64,000 nucleotides of DNA from Gammaproteobacteria bacterium (GCA_050739575.1 JBOIBN010000002.1:2404-66403); one strand, 5' to 3'; positions 1-24,389 are shown, counted from the first letter of the stretch. A program made the numbers and translations. Notes: generated by a model from the sequence alone, not told the origin.

Positions 1-1776
1 CACCCACCAATAACCGCGGCCCACGCCCTGGCAGCCGGCGATCGCATTGCCGATCAGGTTGGTGTTCGGATTCTGTATCCAGAAGCCGCTCGCCGGTTCG
101 ATGTAGATTGGGGTAGTCGGGCTGTCCTTCGGCGGACAGGCAGCCGTCGCTCCAGCCGCGGTGTTGACGTCGGGCGCCTGGCCTGCAAAACCGCCCCCGC
201 CCCCGGGGTCGAATGCCGTACACGAGCCGTGGGTCGGCTGAAGCCAGTTGTCGGTGTCCGGAATATTGAAGCCGTCATAGCCGATGTAATTGGGGGACGT
301 GGAATCGTTGGTCATGTAGTCGCCGGTCCACCAGTAATCGGCGATCAGTTGCTGGCGCGAGATGGTGGTGCCGTTTACCGTAACCGGGTTTATGTCGAAG
401 GAGTTGCTCATCGCGCCGAGGCCGAGATCGTTCTTGAAAGTAATGCCGCTGTCGTCGGCGGCGGTCGTGCTGTTGAGCTCCTCGTAAAAAATATGGCCGA
501 CGATGCGGGCGCAGACGAGGTTCGAGATTGTGACGTTCGCCGTATCATGAATGGTGACGCACTTGTTGTAACTGTGATCAACGCTGTCGGCGTTGACGAG
601 CGGTTTGTTGGCGGCATCGCCGACCATGTGAAAATGAATCGGATAGCTGCCGAGTTGGTCTTTGCCGAATTTTGATAGCCGCACGCCCTGAATCGCGACC
701 TGCTTGAATCCCGCATGGATCATGATCTCGCCGCCCCAATGCAAGTTGTCGGCTTCCGAGGTGTCCGCCGTCAGCTCGATGTCGCGGCTGATCAGCCCGA
801 CCTCGGCTCGCTCGTCCACCCCGTAGTTCTGGTCGGCGCCGTCGCACAGGAAGGCGGGCTGGGTTTTCTGCGAATCCAGAGGATCCTGACAGGTGGCGCT
901 CGCGGAGGAGGGCGCAAGACTGCCGAAGTGATAATGCTTGAGCGGTTGGAGCAGCGTTACCGTGCTACCGCCGTTCGGGTTCGAGAGCACGCTCGCGATC
1001 TGCACGAATTCGGTTTCAAACGGGCTGTAACTCGTGGTACCGACGACGATCCAGTCGCCGTATTGCCACGGCTCGGCACCCTTGGTTACGTCGGCGGTCA
1101 ATTGCAGTGTTTCCGTTCCTGTGCTCGCGACCTTGGCGCCCGCCACGTTGGTTCCGGCAGGTTGAGCGAGCGTGGTCCAACTGACGCCGCCCGTTCCCGG
1201 GACGCCCTTGGCACCATACATCAGCAGCGAGCCGCCCGAGGTCACGTCTATCCCTTTGGCGAAGCCTTTGCAAGCCGGGGTAGTCGAACCGTCGCCTGGC
1301 TTGCCAAGAAATTCGAGTACCACTTTATTGGCGCTCGTAATGGGCTTTGCCTCGGTGCCGTATTCGACCTTGCCGCCGTCCTCGATGCAGATGTCGTGGA
1401 CCGGAGTTTCGAGCGTCGCGAACGGGATCGAGTCGGCGGGCGCGGCGACGCCTTTTGCCATTACCTTGGTTGACTCGGCGGTAATGAGCAGGACGCCGCC
1501 ATTTTCGACCCTGATTTCGCCGAAGGCCGACGGATTCGCTGCCGAAGGTTCCATCTCCACGGTCGTGCAGCCCGGCGGCGCATCCGGCCCTCCGATCACG
1601 ACGTCTTTCTGCGCATCCACGACGCAACTGGCTATGGATGTATAGGAAGACGCGGACAGCTCGGTCGGAGACTGGTCGGACAGCGTGCCGTTGTTGCAGC
1701 CCGCGACGAGAAAAAGGATCAGGCCCGCAGGGATGCCGCAGAGAACGACGCGGGCGCCGGCAGATAGGGATGGCAT
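1..1776 (-). CDS. Large secreted beta-helix protein, paralog 1 (lipoprotein; 5' part only, runs off window start)
   Basis: Hand translation of the minus strand from ATG at 1776 (GGAGG 8 nt upstream) gives MPSLSAGARVVLCGIPAGLILFLVAGC... with a lipobox. About 60-70% identical to the N-terminal 600 aa of the 2485..6513 product (shared HWGGEIMIHAGFKQVAIQGVRLSKFGKD, PIHFHMVGDA, SNLVCARIVG). No stop before position 1. Confidence 0.6.
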   Translation of the reverse strand, partial: MPSLSAGARVVLCGIPAGLILFLVAGCNNGTLSDQSPTELSASSYTSIASCVVDAQKDVVIGGPDAPPGCTTVEMEPSAANPSAFGEIRVENGGVLLITAESTKVMAKGVAAPADSIPFATLETPVHDICIEDGGKVEYGTEAKPITSANKVVLEFLGKPGDGSTTPACKGFAKGIDVTSGGSLLMYGAKGVPGTGGVSWTTLAQPAGTNVAGAKVASTGTETLQLTADVTKGAEPWQYGDWIVVGTTSYSPFETEFVQIASVLSNPNGGSTVTLLQPLKHYHFGSLAPSSASATCQDPLDSQKTQPAFLCDGADQNYGVDERAEVGLISRDIELTADTSEADNLHWGGEIMIHAGFKQVAIQGVRLSKFGKDQLGSYPIHFHMVGDAANKPLVNADSVDHSYNKCVTIHDTANVTISNLVCARIVGHIFYEELNSTTAADDSGITFKNDLGLGAMSNSFDINPVTVNGTTISRQQLIADYWWTGDYMTNDSTSPNYIGYDGFNIPDTDNWLQPTHGSCTAFDPGGGGGFAGQAPDVNTAAGATAACPPKDSPTTPIYIEPASGFWIQNPNTNLIGNAIAGCQGVGRGYWWV

Positions 1777-1839
1777 GGAGAACCTCCGTTAGTATTAGAG
1801 GCGGGGTGTCTGGCGCGTATCATAGCGCGAACGGAACGC

Positions 1840-2129
1840 CGTTATCGGCCCTGATTGACGAGCGCGAGGCGAAGTTTCCAGCGAGCGGCGAGATCAACCG
1901 CAAGGTCGCCGACCAGCATGCCGCGATGGCGAAAGCGGAACGGTATTACGCGGATCAGGCACTGCGCGTAGATCGTCTCGACGGCCTGTCCATGGAGTTC
2001 GATAAATGGCGCTTCAACCTGCGCTCCTCCAATACCGAACCGCTGCTGAGACTCAATGTCGAGTCGCGCGGCGACCGCGGTCTGATGAAACTCAAGACCG
2101 AAGAGATCCTGAAACTCATCGGCGGGTGA
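1840..2129 (+). pseudogene. manB: 3' remnant of phosphomannomutase/phosphoglucomutase (ManB/CpsG C-terminal ~95 aa)
   Basis: C-terminal part of ORF 1638..2129 reads ...FPASGEINRKVADQ...VDRLDGLSMEFDKWRFNLRSSNTEPLLRLNVESRGDRGLMKLKTEEILKLI, a near-signature match to the extreme C-terminus of CpsG/ManB. The upstream ~370 aa of the enzyme are absent, replaced by the opposite-strand gene starting at 1776. Confidence 0.6.
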
Positions 2130-2436
2130 GCCGCACGATTGTTTTATGCCCTCCGGGCGGGGTGACTTTTGTTTCGCCAAAAAAGTCACCCAAAGCATCG
2201 TGCCGGGCGTTCGCGGCCGCAAGGCTGGGAAGCCTTGCGCCTGCCCTGCGATGCTCGCCCGCAACGGGCCGGGCGGCAACTCGGCCTGCGCGATATATCG
2301 CTCCGGCCTCAAACACTCCGCCCTTTCCCCCGTTGCGTTCTGTGCTTCTCGGCGCGCCCGACGGCACAAAACGGGAAGGGAGGTAAGAGCGGCGATCCCC
2401 GCCGCGATTTCGTTTCTTATTTGTTTTCACTGTCAC

Positions 2437-2471
2437 CTCCATCCCTCTCGCGTCGAGGGAGAGGGATGGAG
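2437..2471 (-). terminator. Perfect 13-bp stem hairpin 14 nt after the stop of the 2485..6513 gene (no U-tract)
   Basis: ctccatccctctc-gcgtcgagg-gagagggatggag. A-rich rather than T-rich follows on the coding strand, so this is not a canonical intrinsic terminator. Confidence 0.25.
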
Positions 2472-2484
2472 CGAATCAAGCCGA

Positions 2485-5400
2485 TTAAGGTTGCGGTTCG
2501 GTCGCCGTACACATGGGGCCGTTCGTCGCCGTGTAGTAGGGGTTGCCCTGCTTGTCCAGCGCGACCTGCCGTTGAATAACGGTATTAGTACCATAAACTA
2601 CAAGTTTGTTCTGGTTTGCCGGCGCCGGTTTCAGGTCCGCCACCGCCGGTGTGCAGTTGCTCGAAGGGCCCGGAACATAGTTGGGATCGGTCTCGGCGAT
2701 CGTGTAGATGGGGCAGCCTTCCTTGGGACAGGCGTAATAGCTCTCGCCCGCGGCGACATCCGGACACGACGGATCGTCGTTGCCGTTGGCGCAACTGCCC
2801 GTCGGTGACGGCGCAACCGGGTTAGGCTCGACCTGGGCGACGTTGAGGTACAACATGCCGGTGGTCGGGTTGTAGTAGAACTTCTTGAGATCCGGCGAGT
2901 GATTGGGGTTCGTGAGTTCACCGATGGCGGTGGCAGGATTCAGGGCGGTCGTCGGGGCAGACGGGCACGTTCCCTGGAAATCGTTGCCATGCCAGGGGAT
3001 GTTGGCCTTGTTGTTGGCGTCGAGATTGTTGCAGTCCAGCGGCGTCCAGTATTTTAGAAGTTCCGGGTCTTGCTGCCAAGTGTTGCCGCCGACGTAGGAT
3101 TTGTAGCCGCGGGTAATCACGAACTGGCTCGAATCCGCCGGGTGCGTCCCGTTGGCATTGGTGTAGCAAATCCCGAGCTGGATGAAGAACGGATGGCGTG
3201 CGCTGATGTTCGGGTCCACGACGTCGGCGAGTCCCACGTCGATCCACTTCCAGATTCCGGCTTTGCCGGAATTCTGCGACGGCGGAACGGAGGGCGACGT
3301 GGTCTTCGCCACGGTAACCGTATAACCGTAGCCGTTAGCCACCTTGGGTTCCCAAATGCCGAGCCCGTTGCGCCCGGTCTGCATCGTCATGTCCGGGTGG
3401 AACATGCCGCCCTTGCCGTCGGACGTCTGATCGTCACGAGTAAAGATCATGTCCTGCCAGTGCGAATTGGTGTCGCCCGGATAATCGTCGAGATTCGTCT
3501 GATTGGCGTAAAGGAATGGATAAAGGTCCGAAAATTCCAGCGTTCCCATGGACGCCGGCGACATCAGCGAGCTGTCGCGTCCCTCGAATTGCGCGTTCTG
3601 TCCGCCCCGCGAGAGGCATTCGTCCACCGAGTTCGAGGTCGCGTTGAAGGGAAGATTGTTGAGTGAAATTACGTGCACCGGACTGCTGCCGGCATTGGGC
3701 GCGAGCTGCACCCCGAGGCCGGCGAGCGTCCCGTCTTCGTCAATGATCGCCGTGTTCTTGTCGCCGTCGTTGAAGTTGGTGTTGACACTGACCAGATCGG
3801 TGTAGATCTGGTGGCGCAGGTTGCTATCCACCCAGATCAATTCCTTCGAGGCCGTACCGGTCGGATACGCGCTCTGGTTGGACTGGAACCAGCCGAAGGC
3901 GGCATCGCCTTCATACGGGGTCGGCGGCCCCTGGCCGGTCGGGGACTTCATGTGGGTTTCCCAATCCTTCAGGAAGGTACAGTCCGCAGTATCGAGTTCG
4001 CGGTAAAAAGCCCCGGCTCCAGCACCGGAGCAAGGCATGGCGCTGGTCCAGCCTGAGTTGTAGTTGAAATTGACGAAGCGGTCGTGAAAGACCCGCACCG
4101 GTCCGTCATAGAGCATGTAGCCGAAGTCGTTCCAGTTGGGTTCTTCGTAGCCCTGGCCCATTTCCGCCCCGCTGTGCGGGGTCTCGCCGATGGGCGGAGG
4201 CGTGTGATCCACGCAGCCCAGGAAACCGCCCGTGTTTCCTCCCAGCATGCCGCCCCGCGGACACGGCCCCCAGCGCCCCACGTTGTTCTGGCTGTAGCCG
4301 ACGACAACACTGTTTTCCAGAAGATCCCAGACGCCGGGGGCATTGCCGTCGAGGCCCCCGCTGGTGACCATAGACACATTCTCGCGGTTGGAGGCAAAGT
4401 GGCCATCCTTGATCGCGAACCAGACGGGCCGCAGCCATACACCGCGGAAGCGGTTGCGCGTCGCCGTCATGCCGTCGAGCGTGGCAATAATGGACGGACT
4501 GTTCACGATGCCTAACGCGTGGGGAAAGAGTTGGTCCGAATGTACGCTGTATTCGTTCTCCGCGTAGAAGCCCGAGTAGCAGGCGCTCGCCCGGTTGTCT
4601 CCGAATTTACCCAAGCGAAAGAACTTGGGTTCTTCGTTCACGCCGTTGACCATGATGGGAGGGCCCGGCATCACCCACCAGAAACCCCGGCCTACGCCCT
4701 GGCAACCGGCGATGGCATTGCCCTCCAGCACGGTCTTCGGATTCTGGATCCAGAAGCCGTTGGCCGGCTCGATGTAAACCGGATAGGCAATTTTATCCTT
4801 GACGAACTGGCTGCACGGCGTGTAAGTCGTTGTGCCATCCGCGTTGGTCACCAGGGGATTGAAATAGCCCCCCAACGAGCCGCTGTTGTTGGGATCGTAA
4901 CGGGTGCAGGAGCCGTTTACCAATTGCGCCTGATTGCCGGTATCGGGAATGTTGAAGCCGTCGTAGCCGATGCAGTTGGACCCGCATTCGCTATTGGTCA
5001 TGTAATCGCCCGTCCACCAGTACCTGTTGATCAGTTCCTGACGCGTGATCGGGTTTCCGCCGACGTTCACCGGGTAGATGTCGAAGGAGTTGCTCATCGC
5101 CCCGATGCCGAGATCGTTCTTGAAGACGATGCCACTGTCGTCGGCCACGTTGTCTTCGTCATACGACCCGAGTTCCTGGTAGAAGATCTGTCCCACGATG
5201 CGGGCACAAACCAGATTCGAAATCGTCAGGTTGGAGGTTTCGTGAATGGTCACGCAGTGGTTGTAGCTGTGGTCCACGCTGTCGGCGTTGATGATCGGCA
5301 TGTTTTCCGCATCGCCGACCATGTGAAAGTGGATCGGGTAGCTGCCGAGCTTATCCTTGCCGAACTTCGAGAGGCGCACGCCTTGGATCGCAACCTGCTT

Positions 5401-6513
5401 GAAGCCCGCGTGGATCATGATTTCGCCGCCCCAGTGCTCGCTGGTGGTGGCAGGCGGCGGGGGCGGGGTGATCGGCGCCGTATCCGCCGTCAGCGTAATG
5501 TCGCGGCTGATCAACCCGACCTCGGCACGCTCGTCCACGCCGTAGTTCCGGGCGGGGCCGTCGCACAGGAACGCAGGTTGCGTGCTGGTGGCGGAATGGG
5601 CCGGATACAGGGGGTCCGGGCAGGTGGCGGTGGCCGAGGAGGGCGCCAGGCTGCCGAAATGATAATGCTTGAGCGGCTGGAGCAGCGTCACCGTACTGCC
5701 GCCGTTGGGGCCGGAGGTTACGGTGTCCACCTGGACGAACTCGGTATCGAACGGCGTGTAGCTTGTCGTGGCGACTACGATCCAGTTGCCTGGCTGCCAC
5801 GGTTCGGCGCCTTTGGTTACGTCGGCGGTCAGTTGAAGCGTTTTCGTTCCCGTGCTCGCGACCTTGGCCCCCGCCACGTTGATTCCGGCGGGCGCGGCGA
5901 GCGTCGTCCAGCTCACGCCCCCCGTCTCCGGCACGCCCTTGGTGCCATACATCAGCAGCGAGCCGCCCGAGGTCACGTCGATCCCCTTGGCGAAGTCTTT
6001 GCACGCCGGTACGCGGGACATCACCGAACGATCGCCGACGAAGTCCAGCACCACGCCGTTGTTCACGTCGGTGACCGGCGCGTTCGGTCTGCCGATCGCC
6101 AGGATGCCGCCGTCTGTGATGCAGAAGTCCCGGATCTTCGCTACCGTCTTTGTTTCGGCATTCGCGGACTGACCCGGAATCACCAGCGTACCGCCGTTTG
6201 CGATCCAGATTTCACCGAACGATACCGTGGCAGAGGCGGGTGCCATCACAACAACACCGGGTGCGGTGCACCCTGGCTTTGCAAGCGGGCCACCGATTGC
6301 AACGTCTTTCTCAGCATTCAGGATGCAACTGGCTATGGGCGTAATTGATGTCGTAGAAGATGGGGACAGCGCCGAGGGAGACGGGTCAACCAGCCCGCTG
6401 TTGCTGCTGCCGGCGACGAGGAACGGCACCATTACCGGCACGATTACCAACGCTACCCATGGGGCGATGCGCCTGGTGGCGCGGAAGCGGACCGATCTAC
6501 GAGGCATGGCCAT
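2485..6513 (-). CDS. Giant secreted beta-helix protein, paralog 2 (1342 aa; G8/PbH1-like N-terminal half, Cys/Asn/Gly/Thr-rich C-terminal half)
   Basis: Intact 1342-aa ORF with signal peptide MAMPRRSVRF...VPFLVAGSS. The N-terminal ~640 aa are paralogous to the 1..1776 gene, with right-handed beta-helix-like repeats (HSYNHCVTIHETSNLTISNLVCARIVGQIFY). The C-terminal ~700 aa are a low-complexity, cysteine-rich extracellular region. The functional call (CEMIP/TMEM2-like glycan-active protein) is only a family-level guess. Confidence 0.7.
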   Translation of the reverse strand: MAMPRRSVRFRATRRIAPWVALVIVPVMVPFLVAGSSNSGLVDPSPSALSPSSTTSITPIASCILNAEKDVAIGGPLAKPGCTAPGVVVMAPASATVSFGEIWIANGGTLVIPGQSANAETKTVAKIRDFCITDGGILAIGRPNAPVTDVNNGVVLDFVGDRSVMSRVPACKDFAKGIDVTSGGSLLMYGTKGVPETGGVSWTTLAAPAGINVAGAKVASTGTKTLQLTADVTKGAEPWQPGNWIVVATTSYTPFDTEFVQVDTVTSGPNGGSTVTLLQPLKHYHFGSLAPSSATATCPDPLYPAHSATSTQPAFLCDGPARNYGVDERAEVGLISRDITLTADTAPITPPPPPATTSEHWGGEIMIHAGFKQVAIQGVRLSKFGKDKLGSYPIHFHMVGDAENMPIINADSVDHSYNHCVTIHETSNLTISNLVCARIVGQIFYQELGSYDEDNVADDSGIVFKNDLGIGAMSNSFDIYPVNVGGNPITRQELINRYWWTGDYMTNSECGSNCIGYDGFNIPDTGNQAQLVNGSCTRYDPNNSGSLGGYFNPLVTNADGTTTYTPCSQFVKDKIAYPVYIEPANGFWIQNPKTVLEGNAIAGCQGVGRGFWWVMPGPPIMVNGVNEEPKFFRLGKFGDNRASACYSGFYAENEYSVHSDQLFPHALGIVNSPSIIATLDGMTATRNRFRGVWLRPVWFAIKDGHFASNRENVSMVTSGGLDGNAPGVWDLLENSVVVGYSQNNVGRWGPCPRGGMLGGNTGGFLGCVDHTPPPIGETPHSGAEMGQGYEEPNWNDFGYMLYDGPVRVFHDRFVNFNYNSGWTSAMPCSGAGAGAFYRELDTADCTFLKDWETHMKSPTGQGPPTPYEGDAAFGWFQSNQSAYPTGTASKELIWVDSNLRHQIYTDLVSVNTNFNDGDKNTAIIDEDGTLAGLGVQLAPNAGSSPVHVISLNNLPFNATSNSVDECLSRGGQNAQFEGRDSSLMSPASMGTLEFSDLYPFLYANQTNLDDYPGDTNSHWQDMIFTRDDQTSDGKGGMFHPDMTMQTGRNGLGIWEPKVANGYGYTVTVAKTTSPSVPPSQNSGKAGIWKWIDVGLADVVDPNISARHPFFIQLGICYTNANGTHPADSSQFVITRGYKSYVGGNTWQQDPELLKYWTPLDCNNLDANNKANIPWHGNDFQGTCPSAPTTALNPATAIGELTNPNHSPDLKKFYYNPTTGMLYLNVAQVEPNPVAPSPTGSCANGNDDPSCPDVAAGESYYACPKEGCPIYTIAETDPNYVPGPSSNCTPAVADLKPAPANQNKLVVYGTNTVIQRQVALDKQGNPYYTATNGPMCTATEPQP

Positions 6514-6667
6514 CTACTCCTGCATTACTGCGTGGTAGTGAGTTTATAACGGGCAGAAGCATACGCTTTTTTTTTGCTTCTGTAGAGTCTGACGGAAGTG
6601 AAGACTCCAAGCCATAACTGAATTGGTATGCTATACTACCAACACACCATTAGGAAGGTCGTCGGTC

Positions 6668-7618
6668 ATGTTTCGAATCCTTCGTTTTCCCGCCGTGGTC
6701 GTCCTTGTTGCACTGCCCATGCTAGCGCTGGCGCGGCCGCCGCTTATTTATCATCAAACCGTCAATATGACTGCCAATCAAGGGGCAAACGTAAAGCTGA
6801 TGCTCGGCAGCCCGGACGTGCAGATCGCAGTCAAACCGGTCAAATCGGTCACAGTGACGGTGGACATCTGGGCCAACGCAAGTTCCAAGGACGACAAGGC
6901 GAAGATCGTCAACCGCCTGGCCCCGACGACGAGCATGCAGGGCGACGATGTGCTCGTCCGTTCCCCCGAAAATCATGGATCGCACTGGAGTTTCGGTTGG
7001 CACCAGTCGCCTGAGGTACTGGTCTCCGTGGTCATGCCGCCGAGCATGAACGTCAATTATCGTCTCGGCTCCGGAGATTTCCGGTTCGACAACGCCGGTG
7101 CGCCGACCGCCATCAATGGCGAATCGGGATCCGGCGATGTCATGGTCCATTCGGCCTCCAAACAGCTCGTAATCAAGGCCGGTTCCGGCGATCTCGACAT
7201 CGGCCAGAACGGCAATGCCGATCAGGCGAAGCTCACGGCCGGATCGGGAGACGTCCGGTTTGAAGGCACGGTGCAGACGCTCGATATCCATACCGGTTCC
7301 GGCGACATGAACATCAACGCGGGCATGCATTCCGCCCGGCTGAATGCGGGATCGGGCGACATCACCGCACATTGGCGCAACCTGTCGCAGGGTTCGTCGC
7401 TGAGTGCGGACGCGGGATCGGGCGACGTGATGTTTTATTTCCCTGACGGCACCGCGCTTACGGGCCGTTTGAGTACCGGCAGCGGAGACATGGAAAGCCA
7501 GTCTCCCGGCACGCTCAGCAGCGAGCACCATGTATTTACGCTTTCCGGCGGTAACGGGGCAGTGACCCTCGATGCCAGCACCGGCTCCGGTGACCTGATA
7601 TTGCGCAAGGGCGGTTGA
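6668..7618 (+). CDS. DUF4097 (putative adhesin / SGD-repeat beta-helix) secreted protein
   Basis: ATG at 6668 with AGGAAGG 8 nt upstream. Signal peptide MFRILRFPAVVVLVALPMLALA, followed by ~12 repeats of the (A/T)GSGD(V/M/I/L) motif. Divergent from the giant-protein gene. Confidence 0.75.
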   Translation: MFRILRFPAVVVLVALPMLALARPPLIYHQTVNMTANQGANVKLMLGSPDVQIAVKPVKSVTVTVDIWANASSKDDKAKIVNRLAPTTSMQGDDVLVRSPENHGSHWSFGWHQSPEVLVSVVMPPSMNVNYRLGSGDFRFDNAGAPTAINGESGSGDVMVHSASKQLVIKAGSGDLDIGQNGNADQAKLTAGSGDVRFEGTVQTLDIHTGSGDMNINAGMHSARLNAGSGDITAHWRNLSQGSSLSADAGSGDVMFYFPDGTALTGRLSTGSGDMESQSPGTLSSEHHVFTLSGGNGAVTLDASTGSGDLILRKGG

Positions 7619-7679
7619 GCCGGGTTCTTACAGGGTCGGCACGCAACGTAAACAACCCTTGCCTCCAGGCGAGGCTTGT

Positions 7680-8102
7680 TTACTCGTCGGCGGGTGATCG
7701 CCGAAGCTGTTTTCGTTTCCCTTGTCGCCGTTTGGCCTCGATCCGTTTCTTTTTGGCGGCGCGGCTGACGCGGGGTTTTTTGCGCGGCTTCGGCTTTTCC
7801 GCCGCGCGTCGGATCAACACGAGTAGCCGCTCGATTGCGTCTTCGCGGTTGCGTTCCTGTGTGCGGTAGCGCTTGGCCTGGATGACGATCACACCGTCCT
7901 TGGTTGCACGCCGGCCGGCCAGCTTCATGAGGCGCGTGCGAACGTCTTCGGGCAGGGAGGCTGCGTTCGCGGCGTCAAAGCGTAGTTGGGCCGCCGTCGC
8001 GACCTTGTTGACGTTCTGGCCGCCCGGTCCGGAGGCGCGGACGAAGTTGAGTTCGATTTCGCTATCGTCGATCGCAAGCGCAACGGTAACCGGAATCTTC
8101 AT
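7680..8102 (-). CDS. arfB: Alternative ribosome-rescue factor ArfB (peptidyl-tRNA hydrolase, GGQ motif)
   Basis: 140 aa. ...VRASGPGGQNVNKVATAAQLRF... followed by a basic C-terminal tail (KPKPRKKPRVSRAAKKKRIEAKRR), as in YaeJ/ArfB. Confidence 0.85.
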   Translation of the reverse strand: MKIPVTVALAIDDSEIELNFVRASGPGGQNVNKVATAAQLRFDAANAASLPEDVRTRLMKLAGRRATKDGVIVIQAKRYRTQERNREDAIERLLVLIRRAAEKPKPRKKPRVSRAAKKKRIEAKRRQGKRKQLRRSPADE

Positions 8103-9647: not shown

Positions 9648-10706
9648 CTAACCCTTGTTTATGCCCGGCGGCTGCGCGTTTCCCTCCCGGACCGGGCCGT
9701 CAGCCTTGCCCGATAAACGCACGAGTTCCGAGGGACGAACGCCATAGATCAGCAAGGCGGCGGCGCCGAATGTCGCGTAGGTAAGAAGGAAGACGCCCTC
9801 CATCATCACGGCCGCAAGAAGCGCCGATTCTTTCGCCACGCCCAGCAGGTTAAGTACGAAGGCCGAGGCAAGCAGCATCCCTCCCGGTAAGCGCACGAAG
9901 AAACCCGCTACCGTCACCGAACTCAGAAACACCATGATCAAAAGATAATCCGTAAACCGCAACAACATGCCGACTGCCAGAGTGGCCCACAGCATGTCGG
10001 AGATTACCAGCGCCTTGATCCCCATCGCGGCAATGCCGATTGCGAGCGCGCGCCCAGGCTCGGCGGGCCAGATCGTGCCTTCGGCGAAGGCACGGGAGAG
10101 ATTCTGTACGCGCTTGGCCAGGGATTGCGGCAAACGATGCATCCATGCGAACGGCAGCATCCTACCTAATGCGTGGCGTCGGTGCCAGATGACGAGCGTA
10201 ATCCCCAGCGCGATGAAGAGGGTGCTGATTCTGGCACCCGCGATGAGACCCGTTCGAAATTTCCCCGAATGGACGGGGATCGCAGCCACACCCAGGGTCA
10301 GGACAACCACAAGCAGAAAGGCCAGACCGTCAATCAGGCGATCGACTATAGCCGTCGCCAGCACCGCCGCGGTTTGCAGCGAACTTCGGCGCGCCACGAG
10401 CCAGGCGCGCGCCACGAGGGCGACACCCATGCCCATAACAAGCCCGGGGAGATAGCTCGCGAGCGTGGCGCCGAAAAGCCGCAGCGTCGGCACACTTCCG
10501 ACGGGCCGCATCGCCAGCCGCCATTTCCAGGCCCGCAGAAGTTGCTCCAGCAGGACGGCCGCCAGCAGGACCACGTCGAACGGCCAGTGGGTTGCCGCCA
10601 GTGCGGTGCGGAAACGTTGGTAATCGAACCCATGGAGCAGCCAGCCGAGTAGCCCCAGCACGATGAGCATACCGACGATCCACGCTATCCAGCGTCGTCG
10701 GCGCAT
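9648..10706 (-). CDS. UPF0104 / lysylphosphatidylglycerol-synthase-TM-region-like (flippase-like) membrane protein
   Basis: 352 aa, multi-TM, with N-terminal MRRRRWIAWIVGMLIVLGLLGW typical of the family. Confidence 0.65.
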   Translation of the reverse strand: MRRRRWIAWIVGMLIVLGLLGWLLHGFDYQRFRTALAATHWPFDVVLLAAVLLEQLLRAWKWRLAMRPVGSVPTLRLFGATLASYLPGLVMGMGVALVARAWLVARRSSLQTAAVLATAIVDRLIDGLAFLLVVVLTLGVAAIPVHSGKFRTGLIAGARISTLFIALGITLVIWHRRHALGRMLPFAWMHRLPQSLAKRVQNLSRAFAEGTIWPAEPGRALAIGIAAMGIKALVISDMLWATLAVGMLLRFTDYLLIMVFLSSVTVAGFFVRLPGGMLLASAFVLNLLGVAKESALLAAVMMEGVFLLTYATFGAAALLIYGVRPSELVRLSGKADGPVREGNAQPPGINKG

Positions 10707-10806
10707 CCGTTATCCTCCCGCGGGACTCGCGTTGTGAATTCCTGAAGAATACGCCGTATGTTCGATGTCCGAACGGGGGCGTGGGTTAACGGACGCGTGG
10801 ACTTGA

Positions 10807-12465
<1,659 letters not shown>

Positions 12466-12619
12466 GGCTAAAGGGTCCGGGCCGTGGGTGGAGAATCGAA
12501 AGCGGCTGACTGCGGAACGTCCCGGCTTTCTGTAGCTGCGCCGGATGGCTCGACAAAGCGCAAGGCAACTATTATACTTGCGCTCGTTGGCGCAAGCCAC
12601 CACCAACGGAGGGCTGGAA

Positions 12620-13327
12620 ATGAAGAAATTCGCGCCCGCTTTCACGATCCTGATCGGTGCCTTCCTGGCCGGCTGTGCGGCCACGCAGCAAGCGAAAACC
12701 GTACAGACGAACGGATTCCTCGCGCCTTATCAATCGCTCCTCCAGAAGGGGCAACGGGGCAAGGAAGCGCTCCTCGTCTACCGCAATCCCAAGGCTAACT
12801 GGGCCGGCTACCACACGATCCTGCTCGAACCGGTCACGCTATGGGACGACCCGGACTCGAAACTTTCGGTCGAGCAGGAGAAGGATTTGCAGGAGCTGGT
12901 GAACAGTTTCTACGTTACCCTCTACAACAAGCTCGCCAAGGACTACACGATGGTCTGGGCGCCCGGACCGGGGGTGATGGAGATCCAGATCGCGATCAGC
13001 CACGGCGAACCTTCGCACACGGCGCTTTCGCTCGCCTCCAAGGTGATTTTGCCGGTGAAGCTCGTCAATTCCATGTGGTCCTTCGCGAGCGGCAAACCCG
13101 TATTCACGGGCCAGGTCACCATCGAAGCGGTGGTGAAGGATGCAGGGAACGGCGAGGTGCTGGGCGTCGGCGCCGACCGGCGCGTAGGCGGCCTGAAGCT
13201 CTTCGACAAGAACGCGTTTAATTCCTGGGGCGATGTCAAGAACAGCCTCAACTTTTATGCCGAGGCCGCAGTGTGGCGCCTGTGCGTCCTGCGGGGTGGT
13301 ACCCATTGCGTCAAGCCCAAGGCGTGA
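12620..13327 (+). CDS. DUF3313 lipoprotein
   Basis: [19 protein letters not shown] lipobox. ATG 12620 with GGAGG 7 nt upstream. Confidence 0.6.
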
Positions 13328-13371
13328 GGGTTTAAGGCGGTCTGAAATCTGCGACTGTTAGGGGTCTGTTC

Positions 13372-14466
13372 ATGCCGATAAAGCGGAACATCCTGATCGT
13401 TGCGTTGTTATCCATTCTTGTCGTTGCCTGCGGCAAGAGCAATAACGCGGGCGAAGCGGTTATCCGTCCCGTGCAGACGATGACTATCGAACGGTTCCAG
13501 AGTACGATCGGCTCGACCTATTCCGGGCAGATCCAGGCGCAGCACGACAGCCAGCAGGGTTTTCAGGTCGGCGGCACGATCGCAAAGCGCATCGTGGAAG
13601 TGGGCGATCACGTCGTCGACGGTCAGCCGCTGCTCCAGCTCGATCTCAGCAATCTTGAATACCAGCTGCAGCAGGCCAAGGCGCAACTCGATGCTGCCAA
13701 GAACCAGACCGCGCAGGCCAAGGTAAATGTCGGCCGATCCAAGGCGCTGGTCCAGCAGAACTTCATCAGCCAGACGGAATACGATCAGAGCGAGCTCGAC
13801 TACCAGCAGGCGGTGGCTCAGCAGCAGGCGGCCCAGGCGCAATACGGCGAGGCCGAGAACGCACTCGGCTACGGCACTCTGCGCGCGGCGGTTCCCGGGG
13901 TTGTGACCTCCATTAACGTGAATATCGGCCAGGTCGTGCAGCCCAGCCAGGATGCCGTGGACATCGCCCAGGACGGCGACCGCGAAGTCGTGATCAGCGT
14001 CCCGGAATCCCGCGTGGAAGAGATCCGCAAGGCGCAAGACCTCAGCGTCACGCTGTGGGCGATTCCGGATGTGACGTACAAGGCGAAACTTCGTCTTCTT
14101 TATCCGGACACAAGCCAGACGACCCGCACGTACGAGGGCGACGTGATCCTTCTCAATCCCGATGCAGCGGTACGCCTTGGCATGACCGCCTACGTCCACG
14201 TGCCCGGGACGGTCGAGCACAAGGCTTACCTCGTGCCGCTCACCGCGCTTTACAACAAGAGCGGTTCGTCGTTGCTGTGGGTCGTCAACAAACGGGATTC
14301 CACCGTTTCCAGCCGGCCCGTGAAGATATTCTCGCTGGTGGGCGATAGCGCACTGATCGCCTCGGGCGTGGGACCGGGCGATGTCATCGTCACTGCCGGA
14401 GCGCAACTGCTCCACGAAGGACAGAAGGTAAAACCCGTCGGTACCTATTTTCCGCAGAGTAACTAG
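13372..14466 (+). CDS. RND efflux periplasmic adaptor (membrane fusion protein, HlyD family)
   Basis: Lipoprotein signal LLSILVVAC, coiled-coil region, beta-barrel/MP domains. Stop overlaps the start of the RND pump gene (TAGTG). Confidence 0.85.
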   Translation: MPIKRNILIVALLSILVVACGKSNNAGEAVIRPVQTMTIERFQSTIGSTYSGQIQAQHDSQQGFQVGGTIAKRIVEVGDHVVDGQPLLQLDLSNLEYQLQQAKAQLDAAKNQTAQAKVNVGRSKALVQQNFISQTEYDQSELDYQQAVAQQQAAQAQYGEAENALGYGTLRAAVPGVVTSINVNIGQVVQPSQDAVDIAQDGDREVVISVPESRVEEIRKAQDLSVTLWAIPDVTYKAKLRLLYPDTSQTTRTYEGDVILLNPDAAVRLGMTAYVHVPGTVEHKAYLVPLTALYNKSGSSLLWVVNKRDSTVSSRPVKIFSLVGDSALIASGVGPGDVIVTAGAQLLHEGQKVKPVGTYFPQSN

Positions 14467-17400
14467 TGAAGGGTTTCAACCTCTCGGAGTGGGCGCTCAA
14501 GCACCAGCAGATGATCGTATTCATGCTGGTTGTCTTCACCGTGGCCGGCCTGTTCGCTTACTTCCACCTCGGCCAGGAAGAGGATCCTACGTTCACGGTC
14601 CGCTCGATGACGCTCAAGGCCTATTGGCCGGGCGCCAACGTTTACGACATGGAGAATCAGGTCACCGACAAGTTCGAGCAGACGCTGCAAACGATTGACC
14701 AGATAGACCATGTTCAGAGCGAAGCGATGGCGGGCTACACAATGCTTACCATTACGGTGCGCGACGACGTGCCACCGTCGCAGGTGCCGGGTGTCTGGTA
14801 CGACGTGCGCAAGAAAATCGGCGACATGGAATACCAGTTGCCGCAGGACGTGCAGGGCCCGTTCTTCAACGATGACTACGGTCAGACGTTCGGCAACATC
14901 TACGCGCTCACCGGGGACGGTTTCAGCTACGCGCAGCTCAAGCAGTTCGCGAAAAGCCTGCGCCGCGACATCCTGCAGCTTCCCGCCGTCGACCAGGTGA
15001 ACTACGTGGCCGATCAGGATCAGGAAATCTATATCGAGATGTCGAATGCCAAGCTGGCGTCGCTCGGCATCGATCCCATACAGATATTGAAGGTTCTGGC
15101 CCAGACCAACAGCGTGGAGTCGGCTGGCACGATCGAAACCCGCTCCGATCAGGTGAGTCTGCGCGTCAGCGGCGAATTCGAATCGCTCGATACCATTCGC
15201 GACATCGGCATCCGTTCGGGCGATCAGGTTTTCAAGTTGGGCGATATTGCCACCGTCACGCGCGGCTATGTCGATCCTCCCGTTTACAAGATGTTTTTTG
15301 ACGGGAAACCTGCCGTCGGGCTTTCGATCAGCATGCGCACAGGCGGTAACGTGATCCAGCTTGGCAAGGAGCTGGACACAATCGTGGCGCGCACCCAGAA
15401 GGAGCTGCCCGTCGGCGTTCAGATCAATACGGTTTCCGATCAGCCGGTAATCGTCAAGCAATCGGTAAGCGAGTTCACGACCGCGTTGTTCGAAGCCGTC
15501 GGGATCGTGTTGATCGTGAGTTTCCTGTCGCTGGGACTGCGCACAGGCTTTGTCGTTGCCCTGTGCATCCCGTTCGTGCTGGCGATGACGTTCCTTGTGA
15601 TGTATTTCGCCGGCATAGACTTGCAGCAGATTTCGTTGGGTGCGCTCATCATTGCGCTGGGACTTCTCGTGGACGATGCCATCATTACGGTCGAGATGAT
15701 GTCGCTCAAGCTCGAAGAGGGCATGGACCACTTCCACGCCGCGATTTTTGCCTATACTTCGACCGCGTTTCCCATGCTCACGGGAACACTGGTGACGGCG
15801 GCGGGCTTTCTTCCCGTTGCGCTCGCGAAATCGGGCGCGAGCGAATATACAATTTCGATCTTCCAGGTCGTCACCATCGCGCTTCTTCTTTCCTGGATCA
15901 CGGCCGTCGTTTTCACGCCATATCTCGGCTACCATCTGTTGAAGCAGAAAAAACATGCCGGGCCGGTGGATGAGTATGCCGTTTACCAAAAGTCTTTCTA
16001 TCGCTGGTTCCGTGCGCGCGTTACCTGGTGCCTGGATCACCGTGGGACCGTGGTTGTCGCAACGGTACTGATCTTCGTCGTCGCCATCGCATTGTTCCGC
16101 TTCGTGCCCAAGCAATTTTTCCCGGCCTCCGATCGCAATGAGCTTATCGTGGACATGTGGTTGCCGCAGGCGGCGACGTTTGCCCAGAGCGAACGGCAGG
16201 CCATGCTGTTCGACGAGAAAATCAAGAGCGATCCCGATGTTCTGTCGTACACCACCTACGTCGGTGCCGGAAGTCCGCGCTTCTATCTGCCGCTCAACGT
16301 GCAGAGCCAGAACACGAATCTGGCTGAAATCGTGCTCCTGACGAAGAGCGAGGCGGCGCGCGAACGCGTCTTCAGCCACGTCCGCCAGATGTTCGACGAC
16401 GGTTTCCCGCTGGTGCGTGGACGGGTGACGCGGCTCGAAAACGGGCCGCCGGTCGGCTATCCGATTCAGTTCCGTATCTCCGGTCCGGACTGGGCGACCG
16501 TGGTGCCGGCGGCCGACAAGGTCATGGCGATCATGCGCGCCAATCCGAATCTGCGTGAAGTCAACAGCGACCACGGCGAGGCGGTCCAGGTGCTGCGCGT
16601 GAACGTCGCCGAAGACAAGGCGCGAGCGCTCGGTGTGACTTCGAAAGACGTTTCGGATGCACTGGCGGCCTCGCTCAGTGGAATCGTTACCACGCAGTAC
16701 CGCGAGGGCGATCAGAGTATCGACGTCGTGGGGCGGCTGATCACGAAGGAAAGGACGGATATCAGCAATGTCGGAGACCTGATGATTCACCTCGCGGACG
16801 GCAGTTTCGCGCCGCTCTCGCAACTCGCCACCATCACGGTGGGAACGGAGCCCAGCGTGTTGTGGAGATGGAACCGCGTTCCTACCGTGACCGCGCGTGC
16901 GGACATGCAAACGAACGCGCAGGCGAACGACGTTACGGCGGCGTTGTGGCCGAAGATCGAAGATGTTGCAAAGACTTTGCCGCCGGGCTACAGCATCGAG
17001 GTCGGCGGCTCCCAGGAATCGAGCCAGAAGTCACAGAAAGCGATTGCCGCGACGCTGCCGCTGGTGGGCGTCCTCGTCTTGTTTCTGTTGATGATGCAAC
17101 TCCAGGACATCCGCAAGATGATCCTGGTTCTTCTGACCGCGCCGCTCGGGATGATCGGGGTTACGGCCATCCTGCTCATCTTTCAGATTCCGTTCGGATT
17201 CGTTGCCATGCTTGGCATCGTCGCGCTGTTCGGCATGATCATCCGCAACTCCGTGATTCTCGTCACCCAGGTAGATAAGGCGCTCGCCGCCGGGATGGCC
17301 CTTCGAGAAGCGATCATCGAGTCCACCGTGCATCGATGCCGGCCGATCCTGCTGACGGCCGGCACCGCCGTGCTCGCCATGATACCGCTGACGCGTTCCA

Positions 17401-17537
17401 CGTTCTGGGCGCCCATGGCCTGGGCGATCATGGGCGGATTGATCGGCGCGACGATGTTGACCTTGCTTTACCTGCCTTCGCTCTATGCTTGGTGGTACAA
17501 GGCCGAAAGGAAGGCTGCCTCCCATGTGGGTGCGTGA
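14466..17537 (+). CDS. RND efflux transporter permease (AcrB/HAE1 family), GTG start
   Basis: 1023 aa with 12-TM architecture and large periplasmic loops. The GTG overlaps the adaptor-gene stop. Confidence 0.9.
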   Translation: MKGFNLSEWALKHQQMIVFMLVVFTVAGLFAYFHLGQEEDPTFTVRSMTLKAYWPGANVYDMENQVTDKFEQTLQTIDQIDHVQSEAMAGYTMLTITVRDDVPPSQVPGVWYDVRKKIGDMEYQLPQDVQGPFFNDDYGQTFGNIYALTGDGFSYAQLKQFAKSLRRDILQLPAVDQVNYVADQDQEIYIEMSNAKLASLGIDPIQILKVLAQTNSVESAGTIETRSDQVSLRVSGEFESLDTIRDIGIRSGDQVFKLGDIATVTRGYVDPPVYKMFFDGKPAVGLSISMRTGGNVIQLGKELDTIVARTQKELPVGVQINTVSDQPVIVKQSVSEFTTALFEAVGIVLIVSFLSLGLRTGFVVALCIPFVLAMTFLVMYFAGIDLQQISLGALIIALGLLVDDAIITVEMMSLKLEEGMDHFHAAIFAYTSTAFPMLTGTLVTAAGFLPVALAKSGASEYTISIFQVVTIALLLSWITAVVFTPYLGYHLLKQKKHAGPVDEYAVYQKSFYRWFRARVTWCLDHRGTVVVATVLIFVVAIALFRFVPKQFFPASDRNELIVDMWLPQAATFAQSERQAMLFDEKIKSDPDVLSYTTYVGAGSPRFYLPLNVQSQNTNLAEIVLLTKSEAARERVFSHVRQMFDDGFPLVRGRVTRLENGPPVGYPIQFRISGPDWATVVPAADKVMAIMRANPNLREVNSDHGEAVQVLRVNVAEDKARALGVTSKDVSDALAASLSGIVTTQYREGDQSIDVVGRLITKERTDISNVGDLMIHLADGSFAPLSQLATITVGTEPSVLWRWNRVPTVTARADMQTNAQANDVTAALWPKIEDVAKTLPPGYSIEVGGSQESSQKSQKAIAATLPLVGVLVLFLLMMQLQDIRKMILVLLTAPLGMIGVTAILLIFQIPFGFVAMLGIVALFGMIIRNSVILVTQVDKALAAGMALREAIIESTVHRCRPILLTAGTAVLAMIPLTRSTFWAPMAWAIMGGLIGATMLTLLYLPSLYAWWYKAERKAASHVGA

Positions 17538-18918
17538 GATGAGGCGATGGGGGTGGGCTGGGACGTTGACGCTCTCGGCGGCTCTGGTGGCAGGTGCTGC
17601 GTCGGCTACCGATCTCAGCGAATCGGTCGCCAGGGCGCAGCACTACGATCCTACGTTGCAAGCCTCGAATTACGCGAACAAGGCGGGGCAGGAGGGACGC
17701 AATCAGGCGACGGCACTGTATTTGCCGCAGATCTCGCTCACCGGAGAGTACGAGCGCGTATGGTCGCAAACCAACGTTACCGTGCCGCCGAACTTTCCTT
17801 TCCAGATTCTCGCGCCGCTCACCAGTGCCGGCAACGTCTACGGCTACGGTGTCACGCTTACCCAGCCGCTCTACAGCGCGGACGTTTCCGTGAAAGCGAC
17901 GCAGTTGCGGGATCAGGCCAAACTCGCCGAAGTGGATAACCAGCGCGCACAGCAGGACCTGATCGCGCGCGTGTCGGAAGCCTACTTCAACGTAATCGTG
18001 GGTGCCGATACGCTGCGCTATGTGCGCGCGGAGAAGGCGGCCGTGGCCCAGCAGCTAGCCTCCGCCAAGGCCCGTTTCCAGGCAGGCCGCGCCAACATCA
18101 CGGACGTGCAGGACGCCGAGGCACGCTACGATGGAATCATCGCCCAGGAAATTTCAGCCGAAAATAATCTCGCCGAATGGCAGGCACGCTACGAGCGTTC
18201 CGTGGGACAGGATCCGGAGAATCTGGTGCAGTTGCCCGAGCACTTCCAGCCGACTTTGCCCGATCCCGACGACATGAACGAGTGGATCAGGCGAGCCGTT
18301 GCCGGCAATCTGGATGTCCAATCCAAACTCATCCAGCAGAATATCGCGAATAAGGCCATTGATCTCTACACCCTGTCGAGCCGCCCTCAGCTCGGTCTCT
18401 TCGCAAGCTATTCCGACATGCGTCAGAGCGGAGACCTTTCGTTCATCATCGCGCCAGATCGGAAACAAGCCGCGGCGATCGGGCTGCAACTCAGCTTCCC
18501 GATCTTCACCGGCGGCGCGCTCGAATCCCAATTACGCGAAGCGCGGGCCACGAGCGAGCAGGTCAATTACGAAGTGCAGGCCGCGCGCGCGGACGTCACC
18601 GTGCAGGTGCGCGAGATCTTCCAGGACATCGCAGCCGGCGTGAAGGGCATCCAGGCGCTCGAACAAGCGGCCGTCACCGCCAAGACCTCGCTCGAAGCCA
18701 ACGAACTCGCGCTCAAGGTCGGAGTAAAGACCACGCAGGACGTGCTCAACGCCGAGCAGACCTACTATCAGACACTGGAAGAGCTGGAGCAGGCCCGTTA
18801 CCAGTACCTCATGGCCGTTATTTCCCTGCAACTTTTGACCGGCCAGCTCAACGGTGCCGCGGTCATGCAGGTCAACAATCAACTCCACGGCATGGCGCCC
18901 GAACCGGCGCATAAATAA
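17524..18918 (+). CDS. Outer-membrane efflux channel (TolC/OMF family)
   Basis: Signal peptide (MRRWGWAGTLTLSAALVAGAASA), then two repeats of OMF coiled-coil/beta-barrel signatures. ATG at 17524 or 17539. Confidence 0.85.
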   Translation: MWVREMRRWGWAGTLTLSAALVAGAASATDLSESVARAQHYDPTLQASNYANKAGQEGRNQATALYLPQISLTGEYERVWSQTNVTVPPNFPFQILAPLTSAGNVYGYGVTLTQPLYSADVSVKATQLRDQAKLAEVDNQRAQQDLIARVSEAYFNVIVGADTLRYVRAEKAAVAQQLASAKARFQAGRANITDVQDAEARYDGIIAQEISAENNLAEWQARYERSVGQDPENLVQLPEHFQPTLPDPDDMNEWIRRAVAGNLDVQSKLIQQNIANKAIDLYTLSSRPQLGLFASYSDMRQSGDLSFIIAPDRKQAAAIGLQLSFPIFTGGALESQLREARATSEQVNYEVQAARADVTVQVREIFQDIAAGVKGIQALEQAAVTAKTSLEANELALKVGVKTTQDVLNAEQTYYQTLEELEQARYQYLMAVISLQLLTGQLNGAAVMQVNNQLHGMAPEPAHK

Positions 18919-23944: not shown

Positions 23945-24389
23945 AACGTGCTGTGGCTTCCTGCACCGTCCCGTGGTGCCAGGGGTTGAGCAGCGCAACG
24001 CCGGTTGCTTCGAAATCGGCCGTATTGCGTGTGACCACGGTCATGCCATGGACCAGCGCGGTTGCGGCAATCAGGGCATCCCGGTCAGGACGTGGGTCGG
24101 GCACGTGCAACCCGGCGCAACGCCGCGCCACGGCCTCGTCCACCGGCAGCACCCGTCCATCGAATTCCGAAACCACCTGCTCGTCCAACCATTGACGTAG
24201 CTGCATCCCTTGCTTGGCATCGCGGCGCTCCATGCGCAGTACGCCAATTTCCAGCTCCATCAAGGTCACTGCCGACATAAAGCAGTTGGCTGTATCCACC
24301 CGGGACTGCCAGGCGGCAACGCGAGGATCCGCCTTCCCATCAGCTACTTTGCGGACTTCGGAAACGACATTGGTGTCCAGCAGATACAT
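23928..24389 (-). CDS. vapC: VapC-family PIN-domain toxin (ribonuclease)
   Basis: MYLLDTNVVSE... N-terminus with the PIN acidic quartet. Stop overlaps the hsdR start by ~17 nt. Confidence 0.8.
   Translation of the reverse strand: MYLLDTNVVSEVRKVADGKADPRVAAWQSRVDTANCFMSAVTLMELEIGVLRMERRDAKQGMQLRQWLDEQVVSEFDGRVLPVDEAVARRCAGLHVPDPRPDRDALIAATALVHGMTVVTRNTADFEATGVALLNPWHHGTVQEATARYAGDD

Follow-up and report, generated by a model that had tools for sequence, protein, structure and literature searches.

The window analysed here is a 64,000-nucleotide stretch from an uncultured Gammaproteobacteria bacterium (GCA_050739575.1, JBOIBN010000002.1:2404-66403). Its first 6,513 positions carry two tandem paralogous genes on the minus strand, hereafter copy 1 and copy 2, which encode very large beta-helix proteins. 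Over almost their full extent, both copies are homologous to two animal proteins, CEMIP (KIAA1199/HYBID) and TMEM2 (CEMIP2). The explanation that best covers the whole, and which we regard as probable on balance, is that the pair are exported relatives of CEMIP and TMEM2 that, as we infer, cleave glycans.

Copy 1 runs out of the window at its left edge, and its full sequence is found on contig L001 (13.9 kb, from another assembly), the reverse complement of which is identical to the window's first 11,510 bases. Positions 9735..13661 of this contig encode the full copy 1 (P0002, 1308 aa), and the contig stops 254 bp past it. The full protein aligns to 99% of copy 2 (1342 aa) at 68% identity, and the two stay collinear as far as the C-terminus. 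Thus, the ~700 aa that the initial annotation had copy 2 add to its paralogue are an artefact of the window edge. Within the window, the two copies share 66% protein identity over 596 aa. The homologous DNA repeat described there is real and consists of two aligned blocks, 1..1278 against 4672..6009 at 74.6% identity and 1565..1713 against 6266..6423 at 70% identity. The mirrored wrong-frame open reading frames (ORFs) at 1016..1273 and 5351..6004 are present as well, a trivial consequence of the homology between the copies at the DNA level.

Copy 1 starts at the ATG at 1776, and not at 1780 as first annotated, with GGAGG 6 nt upstream; AGGAG is found upstream of the copy 2 start. The NCBI call for copy 2 (P0001, 1253 aa) starts at Met90, differing from the long form at window 6246..6513 (minus strand), and lacks the signal peptide. 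It also leaves out Cys63 and Cys82, which are kept in 97% of family members. Because P0001 drops both the signal peptide and these two conserved cysteines, we take the longer ORF, with its Shine-Dalgarno sequence, to be the right gene call.

Copy 2 has 28 cysteines in total, 13 in residues 1-642 and 15 in residues 643-1342 (2.1% of each half), so the ~30 cysteines once assigned to its tail are evenly spread over the protein. Its halves differ modestly in Asn (8.3% vs 6.1%) and Tyr (4.4% vs 3.0%), and are about equal in Gly, Thr and Pro. Nor is this cysteine content unusual, as had been thought: 120 of 120 relatives among the matches listed have 23-52 cysteines, and 19 cysteine columns are kept in at least 80% of family members. 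In TMEM2, 20 of the 24 cysteines are in disulfides, and the conserved cysteines of the bacterial proteins probably form disulfides that stabilise the exported protein.

Homology to CEMIP and TMEM2

Both copies match the Pfam families G8 (PF10162; 25.4 bits for copy 2 and 29.6 bits for copy 1, cut-off 22.9) and CEMIP_beta-hel (PF24606; 116.7 and 114.1 bits in the two copies, cut-off 27.3). No other Pfam family matches either copy at E up to 0.1, and no NCBIfam model was found for either. The same pair of domains recurs across 34 diverse family members, with CEMIP_beta-hel in 34 and G8 in 33; the generic Beta_helix family matches eight of them. The sole sequence match in the PDB is the TMEM2 ectodomain (8C6I), at E 2.9e-21 with a single sequence and E 3.3e-68 with a 58-member profile. 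The profile runs collinearly with 8C6I: G8 corresponds to chain positions 61-163, a small sandwich to 326-391, and the beta-helix to 396-541 and 581-806. In TMEM2, G8 forms the first turns of the beta-helix and is part of it (PMC10206443). Beyond the helix, the profile matches domain X of TMEM2 with DGDKN....D.DG at 861-881 and Y.D..TG.LFLY at about 1040-1055. Domain X, otherwise unique to TMEM2, thus has a counterpart in the C-terminal half of the bacterial proteins. Each bacterial protein has its export signal first, and ends with the domain X counterpart and then a small Cys-rich C-terminal module.

Structural comparison gives the same picture. An AlphaFold2 model of copy 2 (residues 58-1257, from a 58-sequence alignment) has a mean predicted local distance difference test score (pLDDT) of 88.5 and a predicted template modelling score (pTM) of 0.92. 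In a Foldseek search of the PDB with this model, 8C6I is the top match (E 2.6e-39; template modelling score (TM) 0.56 by query and 0.53 by target; identity ~15%). All further matches are generic right-handed beta-helix proteins at E 6e-9 or worse and TM of at most 0.15, among them the Klebsiella K1 capsule lyase, phage tailspikes, glycoside hydrolase families GH110 and GH87, polysaccharide lyase family PL6, and AlgE4. For a model of residues 800-1342 (pLDDT 87.2, pTM 0.90), 8C6I is the sole significant PDB match (E 3.6e-12, 442 columns). The G8/PbH1-like parallel beta-helix proposed in the initial annotation, and the CEMIP/TMEM2-like fold it suggested looking for, are therefore borne out.

The likeness to TMEM2 extends to individual motifs. 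Shared between the two are VD.RAEVG, GG.I, YP.HFH..GD, H....C.T.H and GH.F..E, and further along the chain FWI..P.N.L..N, YDGP, DGDKN....D.DG and Y.D..TG.LFLY. Like TMEM2, the bacterial proteins are Cys-rich and, by their predicted export signals, extracytoplasmic. However, they differ from it in several respects. A lipobox or signal peptide takes the place of the transmembrane anchor. The inserted lectin-like domain 1 of TMEM2, ~160 residues long (chain ~163-326), corresponds to ~15 positions of the bacterial profile. No profile match covers lectin-like domain 2, the alignment stopping near 8C6I residue 1055, and the bacterial C-terminus is a different small Cys-rich module. The distance from the helix end to the YYYD..TG.LFLYV motif is longer in bacteria (~400 vs ~250 profile or chain positions). 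No GG/PANDER-type domain was detected in either copy (E up to 0.1) or in the 34 members (E up to 0.01).

CEMIP likewise combines G8 with CEMIP_beta-hel, has a similar length (~1,360 aa) and is secreted by an N-terminal signal peptide. Unlike CEMIP, the bacterial proteins have no GG-1 domain, and hyaluronan depolymerisation by CEMIP needs GG-1 residues (R187) and living cells. Ca2+-dependent hyaluronan depolymerisation is a feature of the CEMIP/TMEM2 family, although disputed for TMEM2. The bacterial pair thus has G8, the CEMIP-type beta-helix, domain X and the overall fold. Because the two GG domains, a defining feature of the animal family, are absent, we describe the pair as a bacterial variant of the CEMIP/TMEM2 kind, set apart from the animal family.

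Other beta-helix proteins are more remote. The depolymerases among them (the Klebsiella K1 capsule lyase 7W1C, phage LKA1 gp49, GH110, GH87, PL6 and AlgE4) share the general helix fold, but their TM does not exceed 0.15-0.2 at 6-11% identity, they share no sequence family with the pair, and none has G8 or domain X. With no Pfam match and a fold TM below 0.2, the pair falls outside the CAZy-type beta-helix families PL1/3/6/9 and GH28/49/55/87/110. Fibrocystin (PKHD1) and PKHD1L1 have G8 followed by parallel beta-helix repeats (PMC11275217), as do the bacterial proteins; by description, they are set apart as far larger multi-domain receptors with IPT/TIG repeats. An origin from a phage depolymerase was considered and rejected: matches among viral predicted structures are generic, with TM of at most 0.2, and the surroundings are core chromosomal genes.

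Export signals and a candidate groove site

Copy 1 begins with MPSLSAGARVVLCGIPAGLILFLVAG-C27, which fits the lipobox pattern [LVI][ASTVI][GAS]C, and a lipobox stands at the same position in most close relatives. Copy 1 is probably held by lipid in a membrane, exposed either to the periplasm or at the cell surface. Should the sorting rules of E. coli hold here, it would be placed in the outer membrane, since the +2 residue is Asn and not Asp. Copy 2 has LVAG-S, which does not fit the pattern: the codon is AGC (Ser) where copy 1 has TGC (Cys), a one-base difference. The Ser36 site is preceded by a positively charged n-region and a 20-residue hydrophobic stretch, and signal peptidase I would cut after Gly35, as judged by eye. 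Because Ser stands at the position of the lipid-carrying Cys, copy 2 appears to be an exported protein that has lost its lipid anchor, and probably represents a variant, either soluble or signal-anchored, whose properties have changed. The lipobox of copy 1 and the plain signal peptide of copy 2 were thus both recognised correctly at the outset. The signals support export of the two proteins, presumably by Sec, with copy 1 as a lipoprotein and copy 2 either released or held by its signal peptide.

The family is conserved over its full length, as read from alignments of 58 and 34 members. In the helix part, the invariant columns are D327, E328, R329, H395, H397, H415, H424, R438 and E447. Further invariant columns are D503, Q605, R690, W693, R695, D803, E868, D870 and H901, and in the loop D916, D918, N920, T921, D925 and D927; many cysteines are also invariant. 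The most conserved part of the helix (residues 323-448) holds the motifs NYGVDERAEVG, HWGGE, YPIHFHMVGD, DHSYN(K/H)CVTIH and ARIVG(H/Q)IFYxE. Kept in the aligned TMEM2 are D327, R329, E331, R337, H395, H397, H415, H424, E447 and the DGDKN..D.DG loop, where TMEM2 reads DGDKNSIFHDIDG; E328 and R438 are not kept. On this pattern of conservation, the helix residues would mark a functional site. The DGDKN..D.DG loop in domain X could possibly bind Ca2+, a proposal made because the motif resembles DxDxDG-type loops.

We then propose a model for the function of the pair. The long groove of the beta-helix would bind and cleave an extracellular or envelope polysaccharide chain, and Ca2+ may sit at the invariant loop. 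Cleavage of a glycan is favoured because of the fold class, the nearest folds other than TMEM2 (capsule lyases, GH110, GH87 and PL6) and the invariant polar stack in the helix. Hyaluronan is an unlikely substrate in soil bacteria.

Several points weigh against this model. We found no literature on bacterial G8/CEMIP homologues, a 2026 review of microbial hyaluronidases included, and no paper reporting activity or a substrate for any bacterial member. One study detected no hyaluronidase activity in the TMEM2 ectodomain and could assign no active site to it (PMC10206443), while intrinsic TMEM2 activity was reported in another (PMC10474455); catalysis by the purified ectodomain is thus disputed. 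All known inactivating mutations of TMEM2 and CEMIP lie in GG-1, which the bacterial proteins lack. No conserved polysaccharide-utilisation or transport genes neighbour the family at the distant loci, the scanned Variovorax locus or the 80 clustered loci described below. In addition, the candidate groove site is proposed from conservation, and the signal peptide cleavage of copy 2 from a reading by eye.

The main alternative is that the proteins are non-enzymatic, with the beta-helix serving as the rigid scaffold of a glycan-binding, adhesive or structural surface protein. The inactivity of the TMEM2 ectodomain in one careful study (PMC10206443) and the lack of conserved catabolic neighbours would both agree with such a role, and many bacterial beta-helix proteins are adhesins, antigen 43 being among the weak fold matches. 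However, seven of the nine invariant polar residues of the helix recur in human TMEM2, and such a set would be expected of a catalytic or metal site more than of a scaffold. The nearest folds after TMEM2 are polysaccharide lyases and hydrolases, and the reported intrinsic activity of TMEM2 (PMC10474455) also speaks for an enzyme. We therefore consider a purely structural or binding role rather unlikely, and prefer glycan cleavage.

It is tempting to go one step further and propose that the family represents the catalytic core of CEMIP and TMEM2, the beta-helix and domain X stripped of the lectin domains. The residues shared from bacteria to human would then form a previously unassigned, possibly metal-dependent active site, for which D327, R329, E331, H395, H397, H415, H424, E447 and the DGDKN..D.DG loop are the candidates. 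We offer this extension only tentatively. Intrinsic hyaluronan cleavage by CEMIP and TMEM2 and the location of the active site are still unsettled (PMC10206443, PMC10474455, PMC12423501), and the bacterial family, in which beta-helix and domain X are kept and the lectin domains are absent, points to the residues shared with TMEM2 as a shorter list of candidates for catalysis or metal binding. The bacterial proteins could be produced without glycosylation, and the genes could be knocked out in cultured strains. If the catalytic-core proposal is true, the bacterial proteins would found a new carbohydrate-active enzyme family, and cultured Variovorax or recombinant protein would offer a tractable model for whether CEMIP and TMEM2 are enzymes. 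The widespread bacterial family is not a new kind of system, but a testable handle on CEMIP/TMEM2 catalysis.

Tandem duplication and divergence of the copies

The pair is a lineage-specific tandem duplication, and the duplicated unit is the G8 gene together with the 3' end of a convergent phosphomannomutase (PMM) gene, as marked by a PMM remnant and by repeated downstream DNA. The 708-bp spacer between the copies holds the remnant, which is 72% identical to the intact PMM of the related locus L002 (tblastn, E 6e-45). In one-copy and two-copy relatives, an intact 457-aa PMM follows the last G8 gene, and synteny with these relatives fits the proposed unit. The remnant has been called as a 107-aa gene both in L001 and in NCBI, there as a hypothetical protein; it is a remnant of the duplication and not a gene. 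Together, the remnant and the downstream repeat are what would remain after a tandem duplication of which one breakpoint fell within PMM. As a side observation, the repeat covers the last part of the PMM ORF with its stop codon, and a terminator-like hairpin.

One detail of the repeat is at odds with a simple, single old duplication. At least its first 129 nt (2078..2206) are 100% identical to the DNA after copy 1 (repeat at L001 13730..13915, where the contig ends inside it), whereas the synonymous sites of the genes are near saturation. This suggests either that the intact PMM end took part in gene conversion or that a second event followed later, and either would explain the identity. A protein search for the intact PMM of the source genome, using the remnant, returned only the remnant itself and unrelated fragments of at most 69% identity.

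A neighbour-joining tree of 33 members places copies 1 and 2 as sisters. In the same tree, the G8 genes of the two-copy locus L004 fall into two different older clades, one in each, and tandem duplication has thus occurred more than once in the family. In the related metagenome-assembled genome (MAG) L003 (14110..18100), the second G8 copy is split into ORFs of 761 aa and 558 aa, by pseudogene formation or by assembly error.

Both copies are old and under purifying selection. Between them, the synonymous distance (dS) is ~1.0 and the ratio of non-synonymous to synonymous change (dN/dS) is 0.23, with 0.12-0.39 in every 150-codon block, and both ORFs (1342 and 1308 aa) are intact. We compared the copies at 263 columns that are at least 90% conserved among 116 other members. 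Copy 1 deviates at none of them and copy 2 at seven, namely I130F, D243N, I262V, K419H, H442Q, D526G and N896D, two of which fall in conserved helix motifs. Each of these changes is seen singly in other intact members. Copy 1 is thus the orthodox form, and copy 2 a derived paralogue that is no obvious pseudogene.

Could copy 2 nevertheless be a decaying or inactive duplicate, with copy 1 alone functional? It has no lipobox Cys, it is the only compared member to carry all five of D243N, K419H, H442Q, D526G and N896D, and the split second copy in L003 would be a precedent for decay. Against this stand its intact 1342-codon ORF with a Shine-Dalgarno sequence, the dN/dS below 0.4 in every block, the presence of all strictly invariant family residues, and the single occurrence of its deviations in intact members, which together make decay improbable. 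We therefore keep to two probably functional paralogues, and the pair is a clear case of duplicates that have diverged by a one-base change in a membrane-anchoring signal.

Distribution, neighbouring genes and the rest of the window

To describe the distribution of the family, one genome per species was scanned. Relatives at 33-66% identity were found at 437 loci in several phyla of these species-representative genomes. The best 80 of the 437 loci, which also served for neighbour clustering, belong to Gammaproteobacteria MAGs, Binataceae, Methylomirabilota, Acidobacteriota (Bryobacteraceae and Solibacteraceae), Alphaproteobacteria and Burkholderiales. The Burkholderiales among them include the cultured Variovorax jilinensis and V. 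ginsengisoli as well as Xenophilus sp. L33. Among 1.84 billion cluster representatives searched, there were 135 relatives at E of at most 1e-30 and 580 at E of at most 1e-10, and the database label for relatives is "G8 domain-containing protein". The hosts belong to soil and groundwater phyla. The family points to a class of envelope proteins that is uncharacterised and probably acts on glycans, and that is common in Binataceae, Acidobacteriota, Methylomirabilota and Burkholderiales of soil.

A DUF4097 gene stands divergent to the G8 genes, as the initial annotation stated (Table 1). The gene order in related gammaproteobacterial MAGs is an RF-1 domain gene, DUF4097 (divergent), one or two G8 genes, PMM (convergent), ThiF-rhodanese, Lnt, CorC and YbeY. 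The adjacency of DUF4097 and G8 is found in the present genome and three such MAGs, all close relatives. Among called genes, neither DUF4097 nor PMM lies beside the G8 gene at the distant loci L005 and L007, and neither was seen in the scanned Variovorax ORFs; in a Pfam scan around the G8 gene of Variovorax jilinensis, citrate synthase and an M23 peptidase were the only matches. Clustering of all ORFs at the 80 loci found no widely shared neighbour, and no neighbour family recurred at over 15 loci. Antisense ORFs within the G8 gene make up the second-largest cluster (75 loci), and a 15-locus cluster overlaps G8 in the same way.

These data bear on the idea, raised in the initial annotation, that the G8 genes work together with the divergent DUF4097 gene as a single surface system. 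The divergent arrangement here and in three related MAGs is what such a system would predict, but those loci share their entire gene order, and common descent alone would give the adjacency. Because no gene neighbour is conserved across the family, and DUF4097 is missing from L005, L007 and the scanned Variovorax ORFs, the adjacency is lineage synteny and no evidence for a system, and we consider such a system improbable. An accompanying suggestion, that the proteins are eukaryote-like, is right insofar as they are homologous to CEMIP and TMEM2, and wrong insofar as the family is widespread among bacteria. The animal origin of the only characterised homologues might suggest that a eukaryote was the recent source of a Cys-rich secreted protein, but such a transfer is highly improbable given the 437 loci of several bacterial phyla at 33-66% identity, a G+C content uniform with the flanks in a core-gene region of conserved synteny, and the absence of the animal GG domains.

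At 12 of the 80 loci, all from Binataceae-type MAGs, a predicted lipoprotein of ~440 aa is encoded directly beside the G8 gene and in the same orientation; these loci are L019 (9645..11264), L021, L030, L034, L048, L050, L052, L055, L058, L059, L068 and L080. The copy with Pfam data (L007, the same contig as L019) has no match. This lipoprotein may be a lineage-specific partner.

Table 1. Positions in the window of the G8 gene pair, its parts and adjoining features
Feature	Position	Strand	Description
Copy 1	1..1776	-	First 592 codons of the 1308-aa paralogue, cut by the window's left end; predicted lipoprotein
Lipobox of copy 1	1696..1710	-	L-V-A-G-C, residues 23-27, from sequence; the residue after Cys is Asn
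Phosphomannomutase remnant	1833..2129	+	Last 96 codons and stop (Pfam PGM_PMM_IV); between the copies, convergent
Repeated downstream segment	2078..2268		93.8% identical to the DNA after copy 1 (blastn and alignment)
Hairpin	2437..2471	-	13-bp stem; begins 14 nt past the copy 2 stop; no U tract
Copy 2	2485..6513	-	Complete 1342-codon ORF, G8/CEMIP-type beta-helix protein; start ATG at 6513 or, two codons on, at 6507
C-terminal region of copy 2	2488..3945	-	Residues 857-1342; domain X counterpart and small Cys-rich module, in both copies
Possible Ca2+-binding loop	3724..3780	-	Motif F-x-D-G-D-K-N-T-x-x-x-D-x-D-G; invariant columns
Most conserved beta-helix part	5170..5547	-	Residues 323-448; invariant columns; candidate active-site stack
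G8 domain of copy 2	5935..6231	-	Residues 95-193; PF10162; aligns to 8C6I chain 61-163
Predicted signal peptide of copy 2	6409..6513	-	Residues 1-35, from sequence; ends L-V-A-G before Ser36
Intergenic region	6514..6667		154 bp of lower G+C separating copy 2 from the DUF4097 gene; presumed site of divergent promoters
DUF4097 gene	6668..7618	+	Divergent; exported protein of 316 aa ("toastrack", LiaG-like); Pfam PF13349, E 4e-23

Around the genes, few regulatory elements stand out. The segment 2400..2490 (minus strand), which contains the hairpin downstream of copy 2, folds at -30.3 kcal/mol (z -2.7 vs shuffles). A consensus scan found no strong sigma-70 match in 6514..6667, scans for promoters and terminators reached chance level only, and Rfam has no matches in 1..8000. 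The G+C content is 0.536 in 6501..7000 vs ~0.61 around it.

The window is otherwise core chromosome, with rpsB, dxr, rseP, bamA, lpxB, dnaE, tilS, glnD, map and dapD. It also holds a complete resistance-nodulation-division (RND) efflux operon (13372..18918, plus strand) with a membrane-fusion protein, an AcrB-type pump and an outer-membrane factor, preceded by a DUF3313 gene. Further along lies a type I restriction-modification locus with hsdR (21623..23998) and hsdS (25152..26531), whose hsdM (26528..27888, minus strand) appears split into overlapping ORFs of 153 aa and 316 aa, which may reflect a frameshift or a sequencing error.

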